Positions 14,511 through 60,946 are shown, numbered from the stretch's first letter. The stretch: DNA of 64,000 nt from an uncultured virus (IMG/VR IMGVR_UViG_3300032030_000052) (IMGVR_UViG_3300032030_000052), one strand, 5' to 3'. Numbers and translations: made by a program. The notes: generated by a model from the sequence alone, not told the origin.

Positions 14511-14514
14511 GGAG

Positions 14515-14587
14515 TGGGCGCAGCCGGACTCGAACCGACAACCTACTGCTTATGAGGCAGCAGCTCTAACCATTGCGCTATACGCCC
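14515..14587 (-). tRNA. tRNA with CAT anticodon (Met or Ile2), CCA not encoded
   Basis: Cloverleaf: GGGCGTA/TGCGCCC acceptor, GCTGC-CTCATAA-GCAGT anticodon arm, GTCGG-TTCGAGT-CCGGC T arm. Confidence 0.9.
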
Positions 14588-15544: not shown

Positions 15545-15740
15545 TTATGAATAGATTCGTGGTGCCTTGTTAATCGTATCGATAAGCTTCTCAGATTTAT
15601 CGTTTCCAATTTCGCAGCACATATCAATCAAACTGTTGAATGTCATGGATGCATCTTTGCCGTCAATGATATATATCGTTTCGACATAGTCTCCAGACTT
15701 GTATGCTTCTTTGCTGCTTACCGTTACGAAATAATACTTA
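15545..15740 (-). pseudogene. 5'-truncated ORF remnant fused to truncated tRNA
   Basis: Open frame KYYFVTVSSKEAY...KAPRIYS* with no N-terminal start or RBS. Confidence 0.5.
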
Positions 15741-15791
15741 CGACCACCCGGTTATGAGCCGGGAGCTCTAACCAACTGAGCTTAACGGCCC
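15741..15791 (-). pseudogene. truncated tRNA(CAT) lacking T arm and 3' acceptor strand
   Basis: GGGCCGTTAAGCTCAGTTGGTTAGAGCTCCCGG-CTCATAA-CCGGGTGGTCG, then unrelated sequence. Confidence 0.75.
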
Positions 15792-17822: not shown

Positions 17823-18578
17823 ATGAGTAATCAGGACACTATAAAGAAACTGGGGGCCGTTGTTAACGAGAACCTGCCCCACATTCTGACTGGAGTGGCA
17901 GCGGTCGGTGTAGTCACCACAGCTATTGAATCGGCGAAAGCTGCACTCAAGATCAATGACATGGACACTAACGAAGAGGATGATCGTAAGGCATCGGAAA
18001 AGGCGAAATCCGTATTCTTTGCACTTCTCCCTCCGGTAGTATCTGGAGCGCTTACGCTCGGGTGTCTGATTTCATCCGACGTAGTACACACCAAGCGTTA
18101 CACGTCCCTGCTCGGCGCGTTCGTACTTGCGAAAGGCGAACTGCCGAAGTATAAAGAGGAACTTGCTAAGATTGTGAGTCCGGAAAAGAAGAAAGAGATC
18201 GAAAGACAGATGGCAGAAAACAGAGTCAAGGAAAACACTACTGTCGAAGCGGCGGCTTCGCGGTACCTTGACGAAAGCAAGTATGTCAAACACAGAGTCG
18301 TCGATCTGGTTACCGGAGCCACACTCAAAGCATCCTATGCAGCACTGCTTAGAGGTGAGACAGAGGTTGCAAAGGAGATCGCGAGAACGGGACATTGCAC
18401 GCTTGAGACGTTCTACTCGTTTGTTACGGATGAAGCAGACTATCCGGAGATTGCTACAAGAATCTACTGGGATCAGGAAGAACGCAGAAACCAGATGGAT
18501 CTTCACATCGGTGCTGAGATCGAACCCGAAACGGGAGAGATGTACTATACCATTGACTATGAGTATGAGACCCGATAA
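17823..18578 (+). CDS. DUF6353-like protein, the only convincing plus-strand gene
   Basis: RBS GAAAGGAG; NLPHILTGVAAVGVVTTA N-terminus paralogous to genes at 55.5-60 kb. Confidence 0.8.
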   Translation: MSNQDTIKKLGAVVNENLPHILTGVAAVGVVTTAIESAKAALKINDMDTNEEDDRKASEKAKSVFFALLPPVVSGALTLGCLISSDVVHTKRYTSLLGAFVLAKGELPKYKEELAKIVSPEKKKEIERQMAENRVKENTTVEAAASRYLDESKYVKHRVVDLVTGATLKASYAALLRGETEVAKEIARTGHCTLETFYSFVTDEADYPEIATRIYWDQEERRNQMDLHIGAEIEPETGEMYYTIDYEYETR

Positions 18579-18655
18579 CGAGTGACAAACTGACAGCTTC
18601 CAAAAGTTATGAATTAGGGTTGGTTCTAAGAGGTCTACACGGCCTCTTAGTTTTT

Positions 18656-19003
18656 TTAGTCATCAACCTCTTCTTCGTCTTCAGGCGGCTTGTAACTACG
18701 CATTGCTTCAATAGCGTCAGCGAACAACTCGGCGACTTGCTTCTCCGAATGGATCTGTTCGGTCTTAGCCTCGAGTAATGTGTTCTCTTTTCTGAGTCTT
18801 TCGGTCTCGAGTTGGTATTTTGAAGTGGCAAGCTTCAGGAAGTGGATGATCTCTTGACCCGTTGCCGTTCCGTCAATGAGACGCTGCTCTGCTCGCTCAA
18901 CTGCAAGGGCTATCAGCTGCTTCTCTCTGTCTTCAGGGTTGTCTGCTGGAATTATCTTTCGAGTAATCGGCGGATCTGGATTGTTTGCCTTGGACTTTGC
19001 CAC
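18656..19003 (-). CDS. terS: terminase small subunit (putative)
   Basis: PEDREKQLIALA...GTA..Q.I.HFLKL..AIEAMRSY; first gene of the packaging cluster. Confidence 0.7.
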   Translation of the reverse strand: MAKSKANNPDPPITRKIIPADNPEDREKQLIALAVERAEQRLIDGTATGQEIIHFLKLATSKYQLETERLRKENTLLEAKTEQIHSEKQVAELFADAIEAMRSYKPPEDEEEVDD

Positions 19004-19059
19004 ACTTTACATCTCCTTTCTAAGAGATTGTCCACACTTTCTCTTTGTTTTGTCATTGT

Positions 19060-19198
19060 TTTTCACATACTTTTCGGCTGGTGCGTGAGACATATACACG
19101 AAAGGAGAAAAGGCCCGGTGCTTCTACTTCGAAAGGAGGTATGGCTATATGGCTTAGCCTAGGGAGCAGACACGCACCAGCTGAAAAATATGTGAAAA
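19060..19198 (-). ncRNA. candidate structured RNA with anti-Shine-Dalgarno segments
   Basis: 28-bp inverted repeat 19060-19087/19171-19198 enclosing CCTCCTTTCG and TCTCCTTTCG. Confidence 0.5.
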
Positions 19199-19333
19199 CT
19201 GCCATGGGAAAAAGCGAAATGTTTTTTGGAAAATTTCCCCCGCGGGATTTTTGAAGATAGCTGCGATGAGGGAGGGGGTGTATTTTTCAGACCCCTCCCC
19301 CGGGTCACGGCAATTGTGCACCCGTCCTATGTT

Positions 19334-19603
19334 TTAGGACAGGATTTGTTCGTCAGCTCGAACTTTTCGATAAACGTTCATGAAATCAAGAGAAATAATT
19401 TCATCAATCGCACGTTCAATCTCAGCGTTGTTCTCTTCGTCAGTCAGTTGAGACGAAGTTCTTGCGATTCTTGCAAGATAGCCGCAAGAATTGTAACCGT
19501 GAGTTGAATCCCAAACAAACCACTCATTGAACTGAGTAAACGGCGAAAAAGGATTATCGAAAGTCGTCAACGCCACAGGTGCGCTGGAAACTCTTTCACT
19601 CAT
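19334..19603 (-). CDS. conserved hypothetical protein
   Basis: LTTFDNPFSPFTQFNEW...SCGYLARI. Confidence 0.75.
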   Translation of the reverse strand: MSERVSSAPVALTTFDNPFSPFTQFNEWFVWDSTHGYNSCGYLARIARTSSQLTDEENNAEIERAIDEIISLDFMNVYRKVRADEQILS

Positions 19604-19614
19604 TACAATTCACC

Positions 19615-22488
19615 TCAACTCTTCTTGAAATATTTATTCACTGTTGAAGTTGAAACTCCGACAGCTTTTGCGATTTCATCAACTGTGTATCCAGAATTTT
19701 TCATAGCTTCGATCTTGTTTTGCTTTGCTGTAGAGATCGTCGTAGTCTCACGAGGAGTCGCTCTTTCACGAAGCTTATCAAGATCTGTAGCTTTAAGTAT
19801 CGAATAAAGCTGATTCTCAGATATAGCACCCGCCTGGATAGCCTCCCACTCACGGTCGGATATCTCGATAGCGTGTCTTTGGGCACCCACTTGTAGTCTA
19901 GCCGTTGTAAGAGCCTGCTGAGCTGCTTTCTTCTTCTCCTTAGAGGTCATATCTGGATTCTCCTGCCTCTTAGCTTCCATAGTAGCGTTAGCCATTATCT
20001 GTGCTGCGCGTTCTCTGGGAGCATTAGCCTGTGCTATCTCAAGCTGATTGAGAAGATTCTTCCGCTCTTCGGCATATTTCTCCTTAGCCTCCTTGGAGTA
20101 CTGGATGCGCCCCGTGTTAACCATTTCAAGACGGGCTTTATTAGCCAAATCTTTCATGTAATTAGCATAGGATGCATAGAGTTCCTCTTGAGGTGTTCCA
20201 GAAGAGAGCTTACGGGCGTCTGTTTCCTCCGCCATGCGAGTTGAATCTTGCATGCGGACTTTCTCTTTGCCCTTTTTATCCGTATAAGTCTCGACAACGG
20301 ACTTATAAACGAGTGCGCCTTCAGGTTTTGTGGGATCATACCACTCTTTACCCTTCTGATTGACTTTCGGCGAGCCTTGACGCTTAAGAACTTGAACATC
20401 AGACGATGCTTTGGAGATCAGAGTCGATGCACCTTCGTGATAATCGCCATTTTCATCAAGATGTCCCTGATATTTCTTCTTGAGTTCAGCAATGGCATTA
20501 TCTTTCTCAGACTGTTTGTAATCCAGACCGTGTTTTGCGGCATCGATAACAACCATACTGTGACGAACAGCACGAGCGAGCTCCGCTTCTGTAGCACCTT
20601 TAAGAGTCATATCGGTAATTAGATTCGATACGATTCCCATTTGCATCTGTGTACTATCACCGCCGGTCTTAGGATTCTTCATAGGTTTGAATTCTTGACC
20701 ATTGCGGTAATAATGTTCAATGCCTTTGGCGTCTGTCTTGATCTCATCGTACTTGTAGGACTTAGAATCGAATCCCTCAAGTCCTTTGAGCGGCGGTGTA
20801 GAGTTAATCTTGATCTTGCTCTGTTCTGAATTGCACGGGACAACAAGAACTGTATCACCATCGAAGTCTGCTCCAGACAGACGCTCTGCTACTTTACTGC
20901 TAATACCAACAGCATCAGCAGCAGTCGGCGTGATTACACGTTTACCCTCTTTATTCTTGTTATTGACTTTGAGAATCGGGATCTCAAATGTTCCACCATG
21001 AGGAAATCTGATAAGAGCAACAGTCTCGCCGTCGTGGAATTGAGGAGCGAAGACCTCATTATCTTTGATGTCGGTAAGAGGAAGAATGACCTGATACTTC
21101 TGACGAGGGAGTGATGCTGCTTTCAAATGAACAGCGGCGGAATCGCAGTCATTGGCAAACGTCTCAAGCATGACTTTCTTCAATGTCGGATTCGTAAGAG
21201 ACGAGATCTCATCGAATTCCGCTTTCTTATCCATCTGAGACAGGGTAAGCTGTTTCTTGATAAGCTGAAGACTCTGCTTAGACAGGAACTGGGACGGAAG
21301 CTCTTTGCTCCATTCACCCCAGTCACCTTCGGTTCTGGTCTTATTGATAAGGCTAAGAGATTGAGCCTGACCGTCAGAACCGGTGAAACGACCATTGGGA
21401 TCGTCGTAATAGCTCTGACCGCCTCGTTCTTTAAGAAGCGCTCCGAACGGATTATCAGGATCAGATTTGATCTTCTTCAGAACTTCCATTTTAGGAGTGC
21501 TCTTATGCTTATTAGTGTTGAAGATAACATCGACACCATCAGGGAAGTCTTTAGGATCTCCGTAAACAGCCATTCCTTTGATGTAATGTGTTCCGTCGAC
21601 GAGAATTCGAACCTGAGCATATGCTGAATTACCAAGAGAAAGATCTTTTACACCTGGACGAAGCTCGACAACTCCGTCTTTCTTGATTCCACCATCTTCA
21701 GCATAGCGAATCTGCATTCTCTTACTATCCATAGATTCAGGATATTCGAATGCTTTCTTGAAAGTGTCTCCGCCATCATAGCTGATATAGTCTTTGACGG
21801 TGTGGATTTTGCTGGAGTCGTAAACTTCTTTGTACTCGGTATCTTTCGGGCACAACACCATGGTGATCGTCTGTCTACCCGGATTCGTGACCTGCGCAAC
21901 GCCACGAGTATAAATCGGATAGCCATCAGCTTCGAGAATGGCAAGAGCCTGACCGAACTTCTCTCTAGAAACGCCGAGTTCTCTCTCAACACCTTCGCCT
22001 ACGTCAAGCATTCCCTTTTCAGCGATGGTCTTCTTGAGAATATCAGCTGTTGCTTGAGCCGCGTTCATTCGCTTCTCAGAATTCTCATTGAGAAGAGATC
22101 GAACAGACGAGTCATTCTTGTAACCCATGATCCGAGCTATTTCATTGAGGCTCTTACCATCATCTCTCAGAGACTTAGCACGAGCGACTTCAAGAGAGCG
22201 GCGTTCACTCTTAGCAATTGCCTTATATGCTCTCAGCTGAGTTGTCGTGATCTCCTGACCATCAGGAAGCTCTTTGTTGATAGCATCGACAATCTGCTTC
22301 TCCGACAGACCTTTCTTATGAAGCTGCTCCACTCGAGACAAGAAGTCACCAGAGTGCTGATACGGGTTTTCACCGCTTCCCCATGGATAACGACCAGAAC
22401 GTCGCTTAATACCATAGTGTCTCAAATCAGTCGGCTCTTCAAGTTCATCGAATCGCCGTTTCTTAATAGCATCAGCTACGTGGTTCAT
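19615..22488 (-). CDS. putative single-chain two-barrel (YonO/RdRP-like) RNA polymerase with HTH domains
   Basis: QVRI...KGM, LIRFPH and LSGADFDGD motifs; N- and C-terminal HTH-like segments. Confidence 0.8.
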   Translation of the reverse strand: MNHVADAIKKRRFDELEEPTDLRHYGIKRRSGRYPWGSGENPYQHSGDFLSRVEQLHKKGLSEKQIVDAINKELPDGQEITTTQLRAYKAIAKSERRSLEVARAKSLRDDGKSLNEIARIMGYKNDSSVRSLLNENSEKRMNAAQATADILKKTIAEKGMLDVGEGVERELGVSREKFGQALAILEADGYPIYTRGVAQVTNPGRQTITMVLCPKDTEYKEVYDSSKIHTVKDYISYDGGDTFKKAFEYPESMDSKRMQIRYAEDGGIKKDGVVELRPGVKDLSLGNSAYAQVRILVDGTHYIKGMAVYGDPKDFPDGVDVIFNTNKHKSTPKMEVLKKIKSDPDNPFGALLKERGGQSYYDDPNGRFTGSDGQAQSLSLINKTRTEGDWGEWSKELPSQFLSKQSLQLIKKQLTLSQMDKKAEFDEISSLTNPTLKKVMLETFANDCDSAAVHLKAASLPRQKYQVILPLTDIKDNEVFAPQFHDGETVALIRFPHGGTFEIPILKVNNKNKEGKRVITPTAADAVGISSKVAERLSGADFDGDTVLVVPCNSEQSKIKINSTPPLKGLEGFDSKSYKYDEIKTDAKGIEHYYRNGQEFKPMKNPKTGGDSTQMQMGIVSNLITDMTLKGATEAELARAVRHSMVVIDAAKHGLDYKQSEKDNAIAELKKKYQGHLDENGDYHEGASTLISKASSDVQVLKRQGSPKVNQKGKEWYDPTKPEGALVYKSVVETYTDKKGKEKVRMQDSTRMAEETDARKLSSGTPQEELYASYANYMKDLANKARLEMVNTGRIQYSKEAKEKYAEERKNLLNQLEIAQANAPRERAAQIMANATMEAKRQENPDMTSKEKKKAAQQALTTARLQVGAQRHAIEISDREWEAIQAGAISENQLYSILKATDLDKLRERATPRETTTISTAKQNKIEAMKNSGYTVDEIAKAVGVSTSTVNKYFKKS

Positions 22489-23437: not shown

Positions 23438-24021
23438 ACCTATTCTCCTTTCACGTTTTTCATTGAGATCATTCGCTATGATTTACCATCAACTGAAAAA
23501 CGAAAAGAGAAAGAGAGGTAAATTATACTCATTTCTGAGGACATTCTAACCTCTCTCCTCATAAAAGCGGATGTTTTTTTCGCGTACTGTCAGATTCTCA
23601 CCAGATTTCTTAAAGACCTCTCAATTAACATCAATGTTACCATGGTTGCCGTCTCTTTGACAAATCTGATTTCACGAATAATCTTTAACCCAGTAAAACA
23701 ATCCGAAAGTTTTAATATCTTAAAGATTATTGATATGAATCTTGCAGTACGCCATAAAACACCTCACTTACCATCAGCAATCACTTGGACTGCTTCTTCT
23801 GGTCTTCGCGTGTCTTCTTCGCACGCCGTCTTCTCTCAACACGGTTCTCACCATGCTTGAACTGACAGTCGCGCCAAGAATCGGGATCACGCTTGATCGC
23901 CCGAGTAATTGTTCTCGTCATACTTGCCATAGCTCTCACCTCCTTTCGCCATCGCATAATATTTGTTGTATTGAAACTGCAAACGAAAATATCTCCGTCA
24001 TGCAGACACAACCTTGTTGGA

Positions 24022-24249: not shown

Positions 24250-24760
24250 TCGTGCTATTTTTGGGTATATTTTCAACCATGATTTTGACCCATTTTTTAG
24301 GCATTTTTTAGACCTCATTTTTACCCCTATTTTTAGCCCATTTTTGACCTATTTTTTAACCTCGAAAAATGGTCTGTGGACAAAAATTGAAAAAAACTCA
24401 TAAACTTTTTTTATTTAGAAATTTCTAAAATATCTTTTATATGAGTTTTTGCAAAAAAATGGTCAGAGGGCCAAAAAACCTAGGCGCCAGGCCAAAAACC
24501 CGTGACCACTTTTTTTTTCTGTGGACAAAAAAAATGGGCAGAAATGGTCATTTTTGTGATAATTGTGTGAAAATTGTGATAGTTTTGTGAAAATTAGTGT
24601 TCTGTGGCCAAAAATTTTTGTCCACAAAAACAAAAAGTGTCCACAGAATTTGCCATTTTTGGGGGTAAATTTTTCAATTTTTCGGGGACGATTTTTTAGC
24701 CCGATTTTGACCCCTTTTTACCCTTATTTTTGACCTCTTTTTTTGCCCCTATTTTTACTC
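24250..24760. other. putative replication origin
   Basis: Largely non-coding and AT-rich with A/T tracts; TTGTCCACA-like 9-mers at 24375, 24520, 24603, 24618 and 24637. Confidence 0.6.
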
Positions 24761-25014: not shown

Positions 25015-25160
25015 CGATTATTTCCTCCGTCTCTCACGTCCGTACCGCTCCTTACAAGAACCTTATAAGTGCCCTCAACGAGTCTAAACAGACCTTCAAC
25101 AGAGCCTCTATTCGACCCTAAATCAACCCTCAAAAGAAGCGTTACGGACGTGAAATAACC

Positions 25161-34305: not shown

Positions 34306-34345
34306 TAGCCTTTTCTCCTTTCGTGTATAGGTCTCATTTAGAACT

Positions 34346-43958: not shown

Positions 43959-44336
43959 TTACAGAGTTTCTACCATCCATGCTGCGAGCTCTTCTTTTAA
44001 CTGTTTGGCACCTTTCTTCTTACCAACCGTCTTTTTCATCTCCTCAACCTTCTTGATGAGTGCCTTTCTTGAAATCGAGAAAGCGCCGACATTATCCCGA
44101 TTGAGTATATCGATACACACTGAAAGTGCTCTGTTCGTCACCATCTCGTGCATAATAAGATAGTTGATAGCATAGACATGGATCGTTTTCATCGTACCAG
44201 GCTTACTCTCGAGATAAGTAGCCGTGGTTCTCGACACATCGAGCATCTCTGCGAGGTCTTCAAGCGACCACCCAGCAAAGGCTCTGATGATCGGTAAGTC
44301 CTGTCTGAACTGTTCGATAGCGGTTTCATCAAACAT
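43959..44336 (-). CDS. XRE-family HTH regulator
   Basis: IRAFAGWSLEDLAEMLDVSRTTATYLE. Confidence 0.8.
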   Translation of the reverse strand: MFDETAIEQFRQDLPIIRAFAGWSLEDLAEMLDVSRTTATYLESKPGTMKTIHVYAINYLIMHEMVTNRALSVCIDILNRDNVGAFSISRKALIKKVEEMKKTVGKKKGAKQLKEELAAWMVETL

Positions 44337-49464: not shown

Positions 49465-52400
49465 TCAGAACGGAATAAGGTCTCCGATATCGTAACCCTT
49501 CTCGCAAATATCCGGTTGCGTCCATGGCTCATCCAAATTCACATGAGAATACGGGCAATCCCAGCAATAATCAGTTTTACTAGGATCTGGTGTATTCTCG
49601 CGATACAATGGACAATCGTGGAAATTGGGATCGCAATTGGTCGGTTCTGGGATATAGTGAACATATTGAGGAACGGTGTCTACATCAGTGAACATCTCGA
49701 CATCACCGAACTTACCGATGGTTTCACGAGCTTTCTCAACCATCTTTTCATAGTAACTCCGGTCAATATCGTCCTCTCTTCCAGAACCACGTACTTCTTC
49801 AGACTCAAGCCATAAGAAGCCTTTGGATCCAGTTGCTGCGGAATACTTGACGTTGCCTTCCTTGTCTTTACCCTCACGAAGCAGTTCTTTACCGCCACAT
49901 CCGGGTTTGATGGGGCAGAACTGTCCGACTCGTCCGACAAATTCTGGTTCGCCACCTTCCGCTCTCAGATACAAAGCTGAAGTAACCGACATGGTCTCAC
50001 ACATATCGTCAAACTCGATATCTTCATGGGTGAACAGAGTCTTGAAGACATAAGGAACGGCGAACTGAGCGCCTGTAGCAGTCCATTGTCCGCCATGCTT
50101 ACGGTTATCGTCGGGAACATACCCATAGAGTCTCTCGCAGTCTTCCGACTTGGCATATCGAGCAATGTAGACGGCGTCATTAACCAGACACATCCGCTCA
50201 TAAGTCGCTTCATGCTCGAATGTGTAGCCATAACGCTTACCGTACTCCATGACAAAGTCGATGATCTTCTTGTCCGCGTTAGGAACTTTGATCGAATCGG
50301 TCTTAATGTGAGCTACTGTGTATCCGAGCTTCTTGACTTCCTGTTCAAGATTCATCATGAACAGGGCACCACGCTTAGCGACGATGTTGTCGATGTTGCG
50401 AGGATCTTTGAACGGATTATCGAACTTAGCAGCGGTCAGACCATAAACTGAGTTGATAGCTGTCTTGAGTGCATTAGCGAGCTGTTTTGAGGTGATCTTA
50501 CCATCCTCGACCCACTTGATGTACTTCGTCAGCTTTCCGCCCAGAATATTATTGATCTCAGACCATGCCTCATGCTTGATAGACACACGTCCGTCAACGA
50601 TCTCTTTGAATCGTTTCGTGAACTCCGGACCGAAGAGACACTCGGCTATGGTGCTGTGCGGATGCATGGAAGCGATATCAAGCAATGCGTCCCAGAAATG
50701 GATTCCCGGTTCTGCATATACTCGTCCACCCTCTCCGACTTCTTCTCCGAGATAAGTTGACTTACCATACTCGTACTTGTAGCCCGGGAAGTATGGCAGA
50801 AGCGAATCTGAGTTCGTACTCCACCATTGCATCATATCAGGACAAGCGTCATTGAGGAAGTTACTCACCGCTGCCGGAAGCTCTTTCACAGGTTCCGCGA
50901 GATTTCGATAACAGAATTGGCTCTGAGGCTTCTTCTCATTACCGAAGATGAACTTAGTTGTCAGTGCGTTTGTCGTGTCATTAACTGTCAAATCAGCAAG
51001 GTCAGCAAGAATCTGTCTTGCAACCCAGTCAGATTCAAGATACCAGAACGCAGCCTCAGTCGAGATAACGTCGTTGTCACAATACTCGGCAACCTTATCC
51101 CATTGAGACTTCGGAACCGGTTTATCCCATGGCAGACCGAGCTCTTGGTGATGCACGCCCATCTCGATTTCTAGTTTCTTAAGGCTCTTCTTGTTTCCTG
51201 CTGAAGCGAAATCGTAGATGTCAGTATAACTGAGGTTGTATGCCTCACCGAAAAATCCTCGGCTGTTAGTGATGATGTTCTGACTGAGGTTATAGATTTG
51301 TTCGTTATCCAATCCGATAAGACACGCATACAGCATATGGTTATCATATCTGCGAACATTGAAACCGATCAGTCTGTTCTGAAGCAGGCGTTCGATTTCT
51401 TTTGGCGATGGGTTAATCATTCTCGTGACAGGTTTTGTCCGAGATTCATGGATTGCTTTGATGATGTCGTCAAATGAATTGGTTTCCGGTTCGATGTACT
51501 TCCAGTTTACCAGAAACAGGTTTGGAAACACCTCAACGTCATAAAATACGATTGGTGCTTCATCGTCGTCATGGTTTTCAGATGGTTCCTCAGATTTGAA
51601 ATGCATTTTTGATACCATCTTTATGCACTTATCAGCTTGATTAGTAGAGTTGGCTGCGAACGCAATAACGGCACCATAGAGGTCGCTCACATCGTAGCTC
51701 ATCCCGCTATTGTACGCATCATCGAGCACCTTGAGAATCATACTCACATTTGAGGTTGTATCGCCATGGATACGCTTCTCAAGAGCTTTCTTGATAGTGG
51801 TTCGCATCCCCTTTTCAGTCTGAACGATATCCATATTCACCATTGGTTTGGCCTTTTCTCCTTTCAGAGGCAAACCGGAACTAATGGTCGCTATTTGGTC
51901 GTTTGTACACATTGTTAGTTTTCGCCGAAGACTTGAATTGCCCGTGAATACCTTGATCTCAACATGGTCCTTATAGAGCCTCTCGAGTTTCGTAACGTCA
52001 CCCGTATAGAGATAATGCAAGTGAATCCCAGCACCTGACTTACTGAGTTCAGCATAAGTGGGCGGCCATTTCGAAGCCTCTTCAAGGTTCCTTTCGAACG
52101 ACTTGTTGCCATCGTCATCCGGAATGTCGAAGTCGATAACAATATGGTTTTCGGGACTCACCTTCACATAATGTAAAAGTGAGGTGTCCAGATCCCCAAG
52201 TGTCTTCTTGACGTTGTCCCACTTAAATCGAGGTATACCTTCGTCGTTGGCATACTGAGCAGGACAATTCGCAAGCTCGTCATCCAGAAGCGATGGTTGG
52301 TCTTGGAACTTGATCCACGTTTCGATTTTAACGGGAGAAGTCGTCCTGACCGCTTCTTCCTCGTCATCGTCAAAACCTTGGAATCTGTTCTTCTTGAACG

Positions 52401-60326: not shown

Positions 60327-60395
60327 ACCTTTCTCCTTTCAGAATTGACGGATTTTCTTCCATTATATAGGGTGCAAAATGCGCGGAAAGAAAAA

Positions 60396-60470
60396 GAAAC
60401 AGTGTTGGAATCGAACCAACGTCCTCTATCGTTTCTGATAGTGCTCCAACCTTGCTGAGCTAACTGTCTC
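60396..60470 (-). ncRNA. tRNA-like RNA B (cloverleaf, 6-nt anticodon loop AGAAAC, no CCA)
   Basis: AGACAGT-TA-GCTC/GAGC-A-CTATC/GATAG-AGGAC-GTTGG-TTCGATT-CCAAC-ACTGTTT then T-run; promoter motif 60472-60496. Confidence 0.8.
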
Positions 60471-60870: not shown

Positions 60871-60946
60871 AAGAAGATATGTGGGAATCGAACCCACGAC
60901 CTCAAGCGTTTCAGCTTGTGTGCTCCCATTGCACCTCTATCTTCTC
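60871..60946 (-). ncRNA. tRNA-like RNA C (cloverleaf, 6-nt anticodon loop TGAAAC, no CCA)
   Basis: AGAAGATA/TATCTTCT, GTGC/GCAC, CAAGC/GCTTG, AGGTC, GTGGG-TTCGATT-CCCAC; promoter motif 60946-60970. Confidence 0.8.

Follow-up and report, generated by a model that had tools for sequence, protein, structure and literature searches.

The window analysed here, a stretch of 64,000 nt of DNA from an uncultured virus (IMG/VR IMGVR_UViG_3300032030_000052), contains a long hairpin close to a genome end, which is conserved in related phages as a structure while its stem sequence differs. The hairpin element is real and conserved, and a role in masking ribosome-binding sites is predicted for it. The explanation preferred here, tentatively, is that of a structured RNA of gene-sense polarity in the leader of a late operon, the loop of which would mask ribosome-binding sites. 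The features concerned are the following, with positions counted from the first letter of the window.

19060..19198, minus strand: long hairpin with a 28-bp stem and an 83-nt loop, read as gene-sense RNA (from inverted repeat and fold)
19171..19198, minus strand: 5' hairpin arm (sense direction)
19060..19087, minus strand: 3' hairpin arm (sense direction)
19131..19138, minus strand: loop motif CUCCUUUC, copy 1 (mean unpaired probability 0.82)
19100..19107, minus strand: loop motif CUCCUUUC, copy 2 (mean unpaired probability 0.62)
19163..19166, minus strand: third, shorter loop word, CUCC
19085..19114, minus strand: stretch antisense to the ribosome-binding region of dCMP deaminase (28/30)
34308..34337, minus strand: Shine-Dalgarno sequence and upstream leader of dCMP deaminase (start 34305), the best predicted target
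19004..19059, minus strand: spacer separating hairpin and gene 1; includes the gene 1 Shine-Dalgarno sequence GAAAGGAG at 19013-19020
18656..19003, minus strand: gene 1 (PHROG 4259), the first gene past the left end
19615..22488, minus strand: homologue of the YonO-like single-chain RNA polymerase, 957 aa with a C-terminal HTH (PHROG 4291, E 0)
19257..19265, no strand: probable cohesive-end overhang (cos) of 9 nt, from contig breaks
19234..19247, no strand: left-end palindrome, cos-linked, single copy, with its sequence conserved across the phage group
19270..19301, no strand: right-end G+C-rich hairpin, with its sequence conserved, directly before the end

The phage in the window is a siphophage of approximately 60 kb and of the cos type, with nearly all of its long ORFs on the minus strand. 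Its assignment as a siphophage is indicated by the gene order, which includes a large terminase (12560-10776), a portal and an HNH endonuclease (17756-17343). A dCMP deaminase (start 34305), a 1408-codon helicase/polymerase ORF and the 957-aa protein at 22488-19615, which is the YonO-like polymerase and the final large gene ahead of the right end, were also recognized. Homologues of this polymerase, all with less than 60 % identity, were found by tblastn in 250 GenBank phage records, including phages of Arthrobacter, Gordonia, Streptomyces, Lactococcus, Microbacterium and Faecalibacterium, and the polymerase is present in 13 of the 16 genome sequences compared. In a preprint (10.1101/842583) this protein is presented as a putative YonO/RdRP-like RNA polymerase and as a marker of the inter-phylum phage group. 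At the DNA level, megablast against GenBank phages gave no close relative of the window, and the sole blastn match in the same records was 40 nt long and located at the right-end G+C hairpin. The DNA of the window was also found in ruminant gut runs.

Some further elements were observed in the window. The sole clear plus-strand gene (17823-18578, DUF6353, PHROG 2152) faces gene 1, and a terminator-like hairpin with T runs lies between the two at 18626-18650. Minus-strand tRNA genes were predicted at 14514-14587, 15719-15789, 60873-60943 and 60395-60470; of these calls a tRNA-Met was made by both tools, two were made by Rfam only and one was an odd ARAGORN call with a two-letter anticodon. Other long inverted repeats occur at 24495-24651, 25032-25155 and 23575-23759 (scores 47, 33 and 32), in a region with few genes which lies upstream of those for the nuclease and the polymerase. 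The first consists of repeated GTGGACA/GTGACCAC-like words, which are also found in three relatives (L007, L009, L015), and the three repeats may represent an origin or operator array. The only other long inverted repeats of the window differ in sequence from the hairpin described here. Within the helicase/polymerase ORF (53691-49465), a strong Shine-Dalgarno sequence with an in-frame ATG is found at 51843-51865 on the minus strand, from which the 792-aa DNA polymerase part (PHROG 4210) would start. The context of this internal start is kept in four of the genomes compared (G001, G004, G006, G008), and its conservation suggests a nested product.

The contig breaks at 19256 and 19266 indicate that both genome ends are joined in the window. 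IMG/VR contigs of three relatives, with polymerase identities of 96, 95 and 75 %, end at letters corresponding to position 19266, directly after the conserved G+C hairpin, and the opposite contig end of a 58.4-kb relative begins at approximately position 19256. Logan contigs from two DNA runs of different studies (the probable source run of the window and a goat-gut run) break at 19256, and in the probable source run a contig picks up again at 19266. The nine nucleotides in between fit the 3' 9-base extensions of the related cluster EL phages, as given in Table 1 of PMC7302621. In the direction of the genes, the order is thus polymerase gene, an 89-codon gene, G+C hairpin, cos, palindrome, long hairpin and gene 1, which places the hairpin downstream of the YonO-like polymerase gene and upstream of the first gene of the structural block. 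The first-pass annotation had put the hairpin near the genome end, and the contig breaks locate it 59-200 nt inside the left cohesive end.

The two end elements (19234-19301) have sequences common to phages from Lactococcus to Arthrobacter, and were also found at positions 1-30 of the 75 %-identity relative (L024) and at the starts of five other contigs (L044, L045, L046, L140, L141). The palindrome has a C/G core, lies about 8-30 nt inside the left end and occurs once in the window. The 9-nt gap between it and the right-end G+C hairpin is probably the cohesive overhang.

The 28-bp inverted repeat reported from the first reading of the sequence was recovered, with arms at 19060-19087 and 19171-19198 which are complementary at 26 of 28 positions (93 %) and separated by 83 nt; the enclosed minus-strand words UCUCCUUUCG (plus-strand coordinates 19099-19108) and CCUCCUUUCG (19130-19139) are likewise present. 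The inverted repeat has a score of 50, compared with a maximum of 29 in 273 shuffles of the upstream regions of relatives. The sense strand of the hairpin folds with -52.4 kcal/mol, and the fold of the 271-nt leader has a z value of -3.8. No Rfam model reached its gathering score in the window, and the best match by E-value over the hairpin region was a chance match to a microRNA model, with 19 bits against a cut-off of 48 bits.

For comparison, 80 loci were identified by means of a gene-1 protein profile, and 12 others as well as the window were added; two were too short (L117 and L119), leaving 91 upstream regions. A long inverted repeat was defined by a score of at least 33, G-T and A-C being scored alike in the search. 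It was present at the same place in 66 of the 91 loci and in none of 273 dinucleotide shuffles (maximum 29), while 25 loci had no long inverted repeat by this score. The 66 hairpins have stems of 23-46 bp and loops of 23-156 nt; in distant relatives, perfect stems of 24-26 bp with unrelated sequence are found at the same place. In a subfamily of 11 members with arms that could be aligned, 93.8 % of the cells pair, compared with 74 % in shuffles (0 of 500 reached the observed value), and pairing falls to 30-49 % when the partner is slid. Covariation across relatives, proposed as a check in the first-pass annotation, was found in this alignment, where 25 of 30 stem pairs have changes in both partners; taking the helix from the sequence of one member favours this helix somewhat. 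The relative with 75 % identity (L024) keeps the hairpin with three compensatory pair changes, and a goat-gut variant (97 %-like) has compensatory swaps at the pairs 19078/19180 and 19079/19179. A scan of IMG/VR with an 18-letter word of the arm gave 16 loci, one of which, on the contig of L024, was related.

Hairpins carrying the loop motif are also present in the cultured phages Lactococcus 1706, Faecalibacterium FP_oengus, Arthrobacter KeaneyLin and Microbacterium Count, and Gordonia Secretariat (cluster DJ) has a hairpin without the motif. In KeaneyLin (L045) the hairpin is located at about 483-680 and a gene lies between it and the end. In Count (L141) the motif-bearing hairpin is at 2502-2648, at a distance of 2.5 kb from the end and separated from gene 6 by 7 nt, with a stem of 33 bp and CUCCUUUC in its loop. 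It falls inside the annotated start of gene 7, which as annotated runs through the hairpin; homology to gene 1 starts only near 2733, so the start of gene 7 is probably annotated too far upstream. A separate hairpin without the motif is found in Count at 29-101, just before a tRNA-Tyr gene.

The mismatches in the stems indicate which strand folds. On the gene-sense strand, the 66 stems contain 1804 Watson-Crick pairs, 189 G·U pairs, 60 A·C pairs and 69 other mismatches, and an A·C on this strand corresponds to a G·U on the opposite one. The excess of G·U over A·C agrees with the minus-strand orientation assumed in the first reading and favours a folded single strand of gene-sense polarity (minus in the window), for which RNA, as the simplest reading of the strand bias, is the most likely. 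The loops are also asymmetric, with CTCC on the sense strand in 61 of 66 and GGAG in only 4 of 66. Ribosome-binding 5' stabilisers have a Shine-Dalgarno-like word within the message itself; here the mRNA-sense strand carries the complement of the Shine-Dalgarno sequence instead, and GGAG is restricted to those four loops.

The motif CUCCUUUC is exact in 53 of the 66 loops, in one to three copies per loop, and matches at seven of eight letters in a further seven. It is fully unpaired in the minimum free energy structure in 27 loops, and at least five of its eight letters are unpaired in 55 of the 66. The preceding base is usually U (43 of 66) and the following one A or G. The word is the complement of the commonest ribosome-binding site of these phages. 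On the sense strand of the window there are 3 copies of CUCCUUUC, compared with 22 of its complement GAAAGGAG; two of the three are in the hairpin and the third is the binding site of the lone plus-strand gene. Ten near-complete relatives have 0-3 sense-strand copies of CUCCUUUC per genome against mostly 11-30 of the complement (just 0-2 in three of the ten), and in eight of the ten an exact copy is in the hairpin loop. CUCCUUUC is also identical to eight letters of the 3' tail of 16S rRNA, as annotated at the end of E. coli rrsH. When genomes were scanned with the last 14 letters of the E. coli rrsH 3' end, 120 loci were obtained, which from their pattern are probably rRNA ends; 91 of them carry TC after the 14 letters, giving ...CCTCCTTTC..., and these include loci of Bacillus, Staphylococcus, Clostridium, Parvimonas, Streptomyces and Microbacterium. 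The flanks of the motif in the loop mirror the ribosome-binding cassette of the phage's own genes.

The best predicted target in the window is the dCMP deaminase message. A complementarity of 28 of 29 nt had been claimed for it and was confirmed for those 29 nt; the full match, between plus-strand positions 19085-19114 and minus-strand positions 34308-34337, has two mismatches in 30, and none of 100 shuffles gave two matches. It falls on the ribosome-binding site of the deaminase gene (PHROG 174, E 1e-39), and the duplex of the antisense stretch and the deaminase leader has a predicted energy of -49.3 kcal/mol when internal structure is ignored. The other sites named in the first reading were found as well: CGAAAGGAG, with 13 occurrences where 0.8 would be expected, is located in front of the starts at 17823, 58929, about 60047 and 62432, and AGGAGGTATGG precedes the start at 44336.

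In order to extend the comparison beyond the window, the antisense of each hairpin was matched to the sense strand of 16 genomes, consisting of the window, three contigs, 1706 and FP_oengus (the first 50 kb of each), and ten contigs with a length of at least 55 kb, which were chosen from the hairpin-positive loci and are not a random sample. The own genome gave strictly the best match for 9 of the 16 hairpins and a tied best for two. In nine genomes the own scores were 17-26, compared with cross-genome maxima of 13-17 and values of 10-15 in same-sense and reversed controls; 5 of the 16 had no own-genome match above noise. The top match of G009 (score 20) was rejected, being the hairpin's own arm duplicated in the terminal repeat of the contig, and the true best score there is 17. 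The matched sites belong to real genes and cover the Shine-Dalgarno sequence and spacer, in some cases extending to the start codon. Examples are orf52 (25/26) and orf27 (23/24) of 1706 and a 21/21 match in G012, and three genomes (G001, G009, G014) have families of 16-18-letter cassettes common to three or four genes. The internal start of the DNA polymerase gave a top match in the window, G001 and G008, and not in G004 or G006. No orthologous target was common to all genomes, and the PHROG names of 16 target genes had no theme. The window and the relative with 75 % identity share the deaminase-like word, and other phages have equivalents of their own.

Of the first-pass reading of the hairpin as a multi-target antisense RNA silencing early and middle genes, the minus strand and the many targets thus stood: the loop is antisense to many ribosome-binding sites, the relatives by computation match their own ribosome-binding cassettes, and the element is not a one-off. 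The preference for early and middle genes was weakened. Complementarity of at least 12 was found at 51 of 1065 early or middle starts and at 14 of 421 late starts (Fisher p 0.26 per gene), with a slightly higher mean for the early and middle genes and with crude gene calls. The late genes, including gene 1, share the same Shine-Dalgarno word, so a blocker acting in trans would hit late genes too.

Gene 1, which has no Pfam or PDB relative, is central to the main alternative, according to which the hairpin is purely a cis leader or intercistronic element of the structural operon and has no role in trans. The stem would then be an RNase III site, a stabiliser or an insulator, and the loop would pair only with the Shine-Dalgarno sequence of the next gene, the PHROG 4259 homologue. 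This is possible, if rather doubtful. It would account for the position of the hairpin, which is directly upstream of the gene-1 homologue in most relatives (11-90 nt in most of the 66 loci) and stays with this gene in KeaneyLin and in Count, and it agrees with the strong Shine-Dalgarno sequence of gene 1, which has 8/8 letters in 14 and 7/8 in 32 of the 66 loci. However, the loop does not match its own gene-1 site better than the gene-1 sites of other phages (7.11 compared with 7.07; normalised rank 0.506), and gene 1 was never the best loop match in the 16 genomes. In addition, three genes lie between the hairpin and the gene-1 homologue in Lactococcus phage 1706, and the own-genome matches of 17-26 letters to distant genes would be left unexplained. 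Two loci in which the best inverted repeat was the right-end hairpin (L097, L099) were left out of the Gibbs, start-codon and gene-1-site tests, three with a spacer that was too long or too short (L046, L019, L115) were left out of the gene-1-site test, and identical loops were counted once from the Gibbs search onward. In the Gibbs search, an A-rich word recurred close to where the 3' arm has its base.

The cis alternative would also fit the finding that the hairpin has no evident promoter or terminator of its own. A promoter scan gave one weak sigma-70-like match, compared with 1.2 expected, and its start would be inside the gene-1 Shine-Dalgarno sequence; no intrinsic terminator was found downstream of the hairpin. 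Words resembling a -10 box follow the 3' arm in 36 of 66 tails and also occur in 24 of 66 loops, so that no consistent promoter emerges. In KeaneyLin (L045, about 680-700) a perfect extended -10-like word, TGCTATAAT, is found 2 nt past the 3' arm, and there may be a host-type promoter right behind the hairpin in this phage. A contig from an RNA library, a kind of library which can contain DNA, covers 18858-19058 and ends 2 nt from the base of the stem, although contig ends do not mark RNA ends; if it derives from a gene-1 message, this would weakly suggest that the message extends at least to the base of the hairpin. No contig over 19059-19351 was present in the RNA-library runs X2 and X9, which counts neither way.

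A second alternative is that the hairpin acts at the DNA level, as a hairpin or cruciform serving as a start signal for the polymerase, as a priming site resembling a single-strand origin, or as a cos accessory. The strand bias is compatible with this, as G·T wobbles are tolerated in DNA hairpins too, and the element adjoins the polymerase gene and lies 43-58 nt from the left end in many contigs. The single-strand origins of rolling-circle plasmids are long, imperfect, strand-specific hairpins with a conserved loop word, and the strand bias, the long stem and the conserved loop word of the phage element recall them. The loop, however, mirrors the phage's own ribosome-binding cassette including the spacer, which neither that family nor a DNA signal in general would explain, and overall a function as DNA appears improbable. 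As to the start signal, the Streptomyces BI phages Madamato and CherryBlossom have the polymerase and no long inverted repeat, which makes a signal required by the polymerase unlikely. The virion polymerase promoters of phage N4 are hairpins with a short stem and a tiny loop, present in several copies ahead of the transcribed genes, and stems of 23-46 bp with loops of 23-156 nt are unlike them; an N4-type promoter was rejected for the window, where the stem is 28 bp, the loop 83 nt, the copy single and the polymerase of another family. A cos accessory, such as a terminase binding region, was also rejected, since the hairpin has no fixed position and tracks the gene-1 homologue rather than the end in Count and KeaneyLin, with genes between hairpin and end.

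It is very improbable that the opposite strand is the meaningful one, with genuine or decoy ribosome-binding sites on the plus strand (for mini-ORFs or as a ribosome-binding stabiliser) or with captured duplicates of gene starts. The plus-strand words are indeed perfect Shine-Dalgarno sites with the usual spacers of the phage, and in the window a GTG is located 10 nt past one site, opening 14 codons, and ATG-GCT-stop past the other. Across the relatives, however, a start codon follows the antisense GGAG at 4-12 nt in only 26 of 60 loops, which is near chance, and the ORFs, of 2-65 codons, are unrelated and without conservation. The ratio of 189 to 60 in the stem mismatches favours the gene-sense strand, and nearly all genes, and hence the expected transcription, run the other way.

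That the loop is a protein decoy is scarcely credible. In place of pairing with mRNA, it would imitate the 16S 3' tail and thereby capture a protein of host or phage which recognizes that tail, such as a nuclease or a factor for maturation or assembly. All eight 16S letters are kept more strictly than a core of 4-5 letters would require, and the long closing stem is reminiscent of the stalk that is cleaved to release 16S rRNA. However, the identity ends at the eight letters, U precedes them in 43 of 66 loops in contrast to the C of the 16S loci, the flanks follow the ribosome-binding spacers of the phage instead, and no candidate protein was identified.

Masking of Shine-Dalgarno sequences by pyrimidine-rich loops is already known, while the hairpin family is absent from Rfam. 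RsaE/RoxS and RNAIII of S. aureus are RNAs of Firmicutes in which pyrimidine-rich loops pair with Shine-Dalgarno sites. The phage hairpin resembles them in its C/U-rich loop words, its many (predicted) targets and the predicted masking of ribosome-binding sites; the loop word is unpaired, and the computed complementarity to ribosome-binding sites extends beyond the core. In contrast, these RNAs are encoded by independent chromosomal genes, each with a promoter and terminator of its own, and the hairpin, for which no such promoter, terminator or curated RNA family model was found, is in an operon leader and has a closing stem of 23-46 bp. It also differs from them in its loop word, which copies eight letters of the 16S tail exactly, and in being known from sequence alone.

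RNase III processing hairpins in polycistronic phage messages, and the stalk formed around 16S rRNA in the precursor, share with the phage hairpin a long, near-perfect stem between or ahead of cistrons, and the stems of 23-46 bp in the 66 loci include the approximately 20 bp of near-perfect double-stranded RNA typical of RNase III sites. Unlike the phage hairpin, for which cleavage is putative, they have no conserved anti-Shine-Dalgarno loop word.

A parallel in genome position is found in the Bacillus prophage SPbeta, in which an unannotated non-coding RNA is located at the start of the late operon transcribed by YonO (PMC5467207). As in SPbeta, a gene for a YonO-type polymerase is just upstream and a (here putative) non-coding RNA heads the late structural operon. 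In the SPbeta sequence (L127), a 1.7-kb stretch without annotated genes (19154-20834) follows yonO/yonN and precedes yonK; it contains, about 30 nt before yonK, a 16-bp inverted repeat with an 87-nt loop that includes CUCCUUU. This repeat is weaker than the phage hairpin, its score of 27 being within the noise of the shuffles. No description of the hairpin family was found in the open-access literature and bioRxiv, and the available parts of two papers on the phage group (10.1101/842583 and PMC7302621) do not mention the hairpin.

According to the preferred explanation, a structured RNA masking ribosome-binding sites, the hairpin would belong to the leader of the structural genes, a presumably late block which starts shortly after the left cohesive end, and would be co-transcribed with these genes. 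Its long double-stranded stem would present a loop with one to three copies of CUCCUUUC, which would pair with the Shine-Dalgarno sequence and spacer of messages and thereby keep 30S subunits off. Several genes of the phage itself are predicted as targets, with the dCMP deaminase as the best one in the window, and host messages may be targets as well. The dose of the RNA would track late transcription by the phage polymerase encoded just upstream, as an analogy with YonO suggests, and RNase III could release the loop by cleaving the long stem. A more far-reaching version, which must be considered unlikely at present, is that the hairpin is a stand-in for the docking tail of the ribosome, built like a miniature rRNA precursor: an abundant late RNA released by RNase III, which would compete with 30S subunits for Shine-Dalgarno sites in general and have its flanks tuned to the phage's own gene-start cassettes.

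Even if the role in trans fails, the family would still be an RNA structure supported by covariation and absent from Rfam, and would help to correct annotations such as that of Count gene 7. If the loop masks ribosome-binding sites, the phage would have a compact, RNA-only route to reprogramme translation, and a post-transcriptional layer would be added to the little-known gene programme of YonO-like polymerases. The phage group with this hairpin is large, has hosts among both Firmicutes and Actinobacteria, and includes the cultured dairy phage 1706, the gut phage FP_oengus and dozens of SEA-PHAGES isolates, so the prediction is testable in culture. If the stand-in version were true, the hairpin would act as a general switch of translation linked to a YonO-type RNA polymerase, and this switch would have been kept across two bacterial phyla, from Lactococcus 1706 and FP_oengus to the phages of Arthrobacter and Microbacterium.
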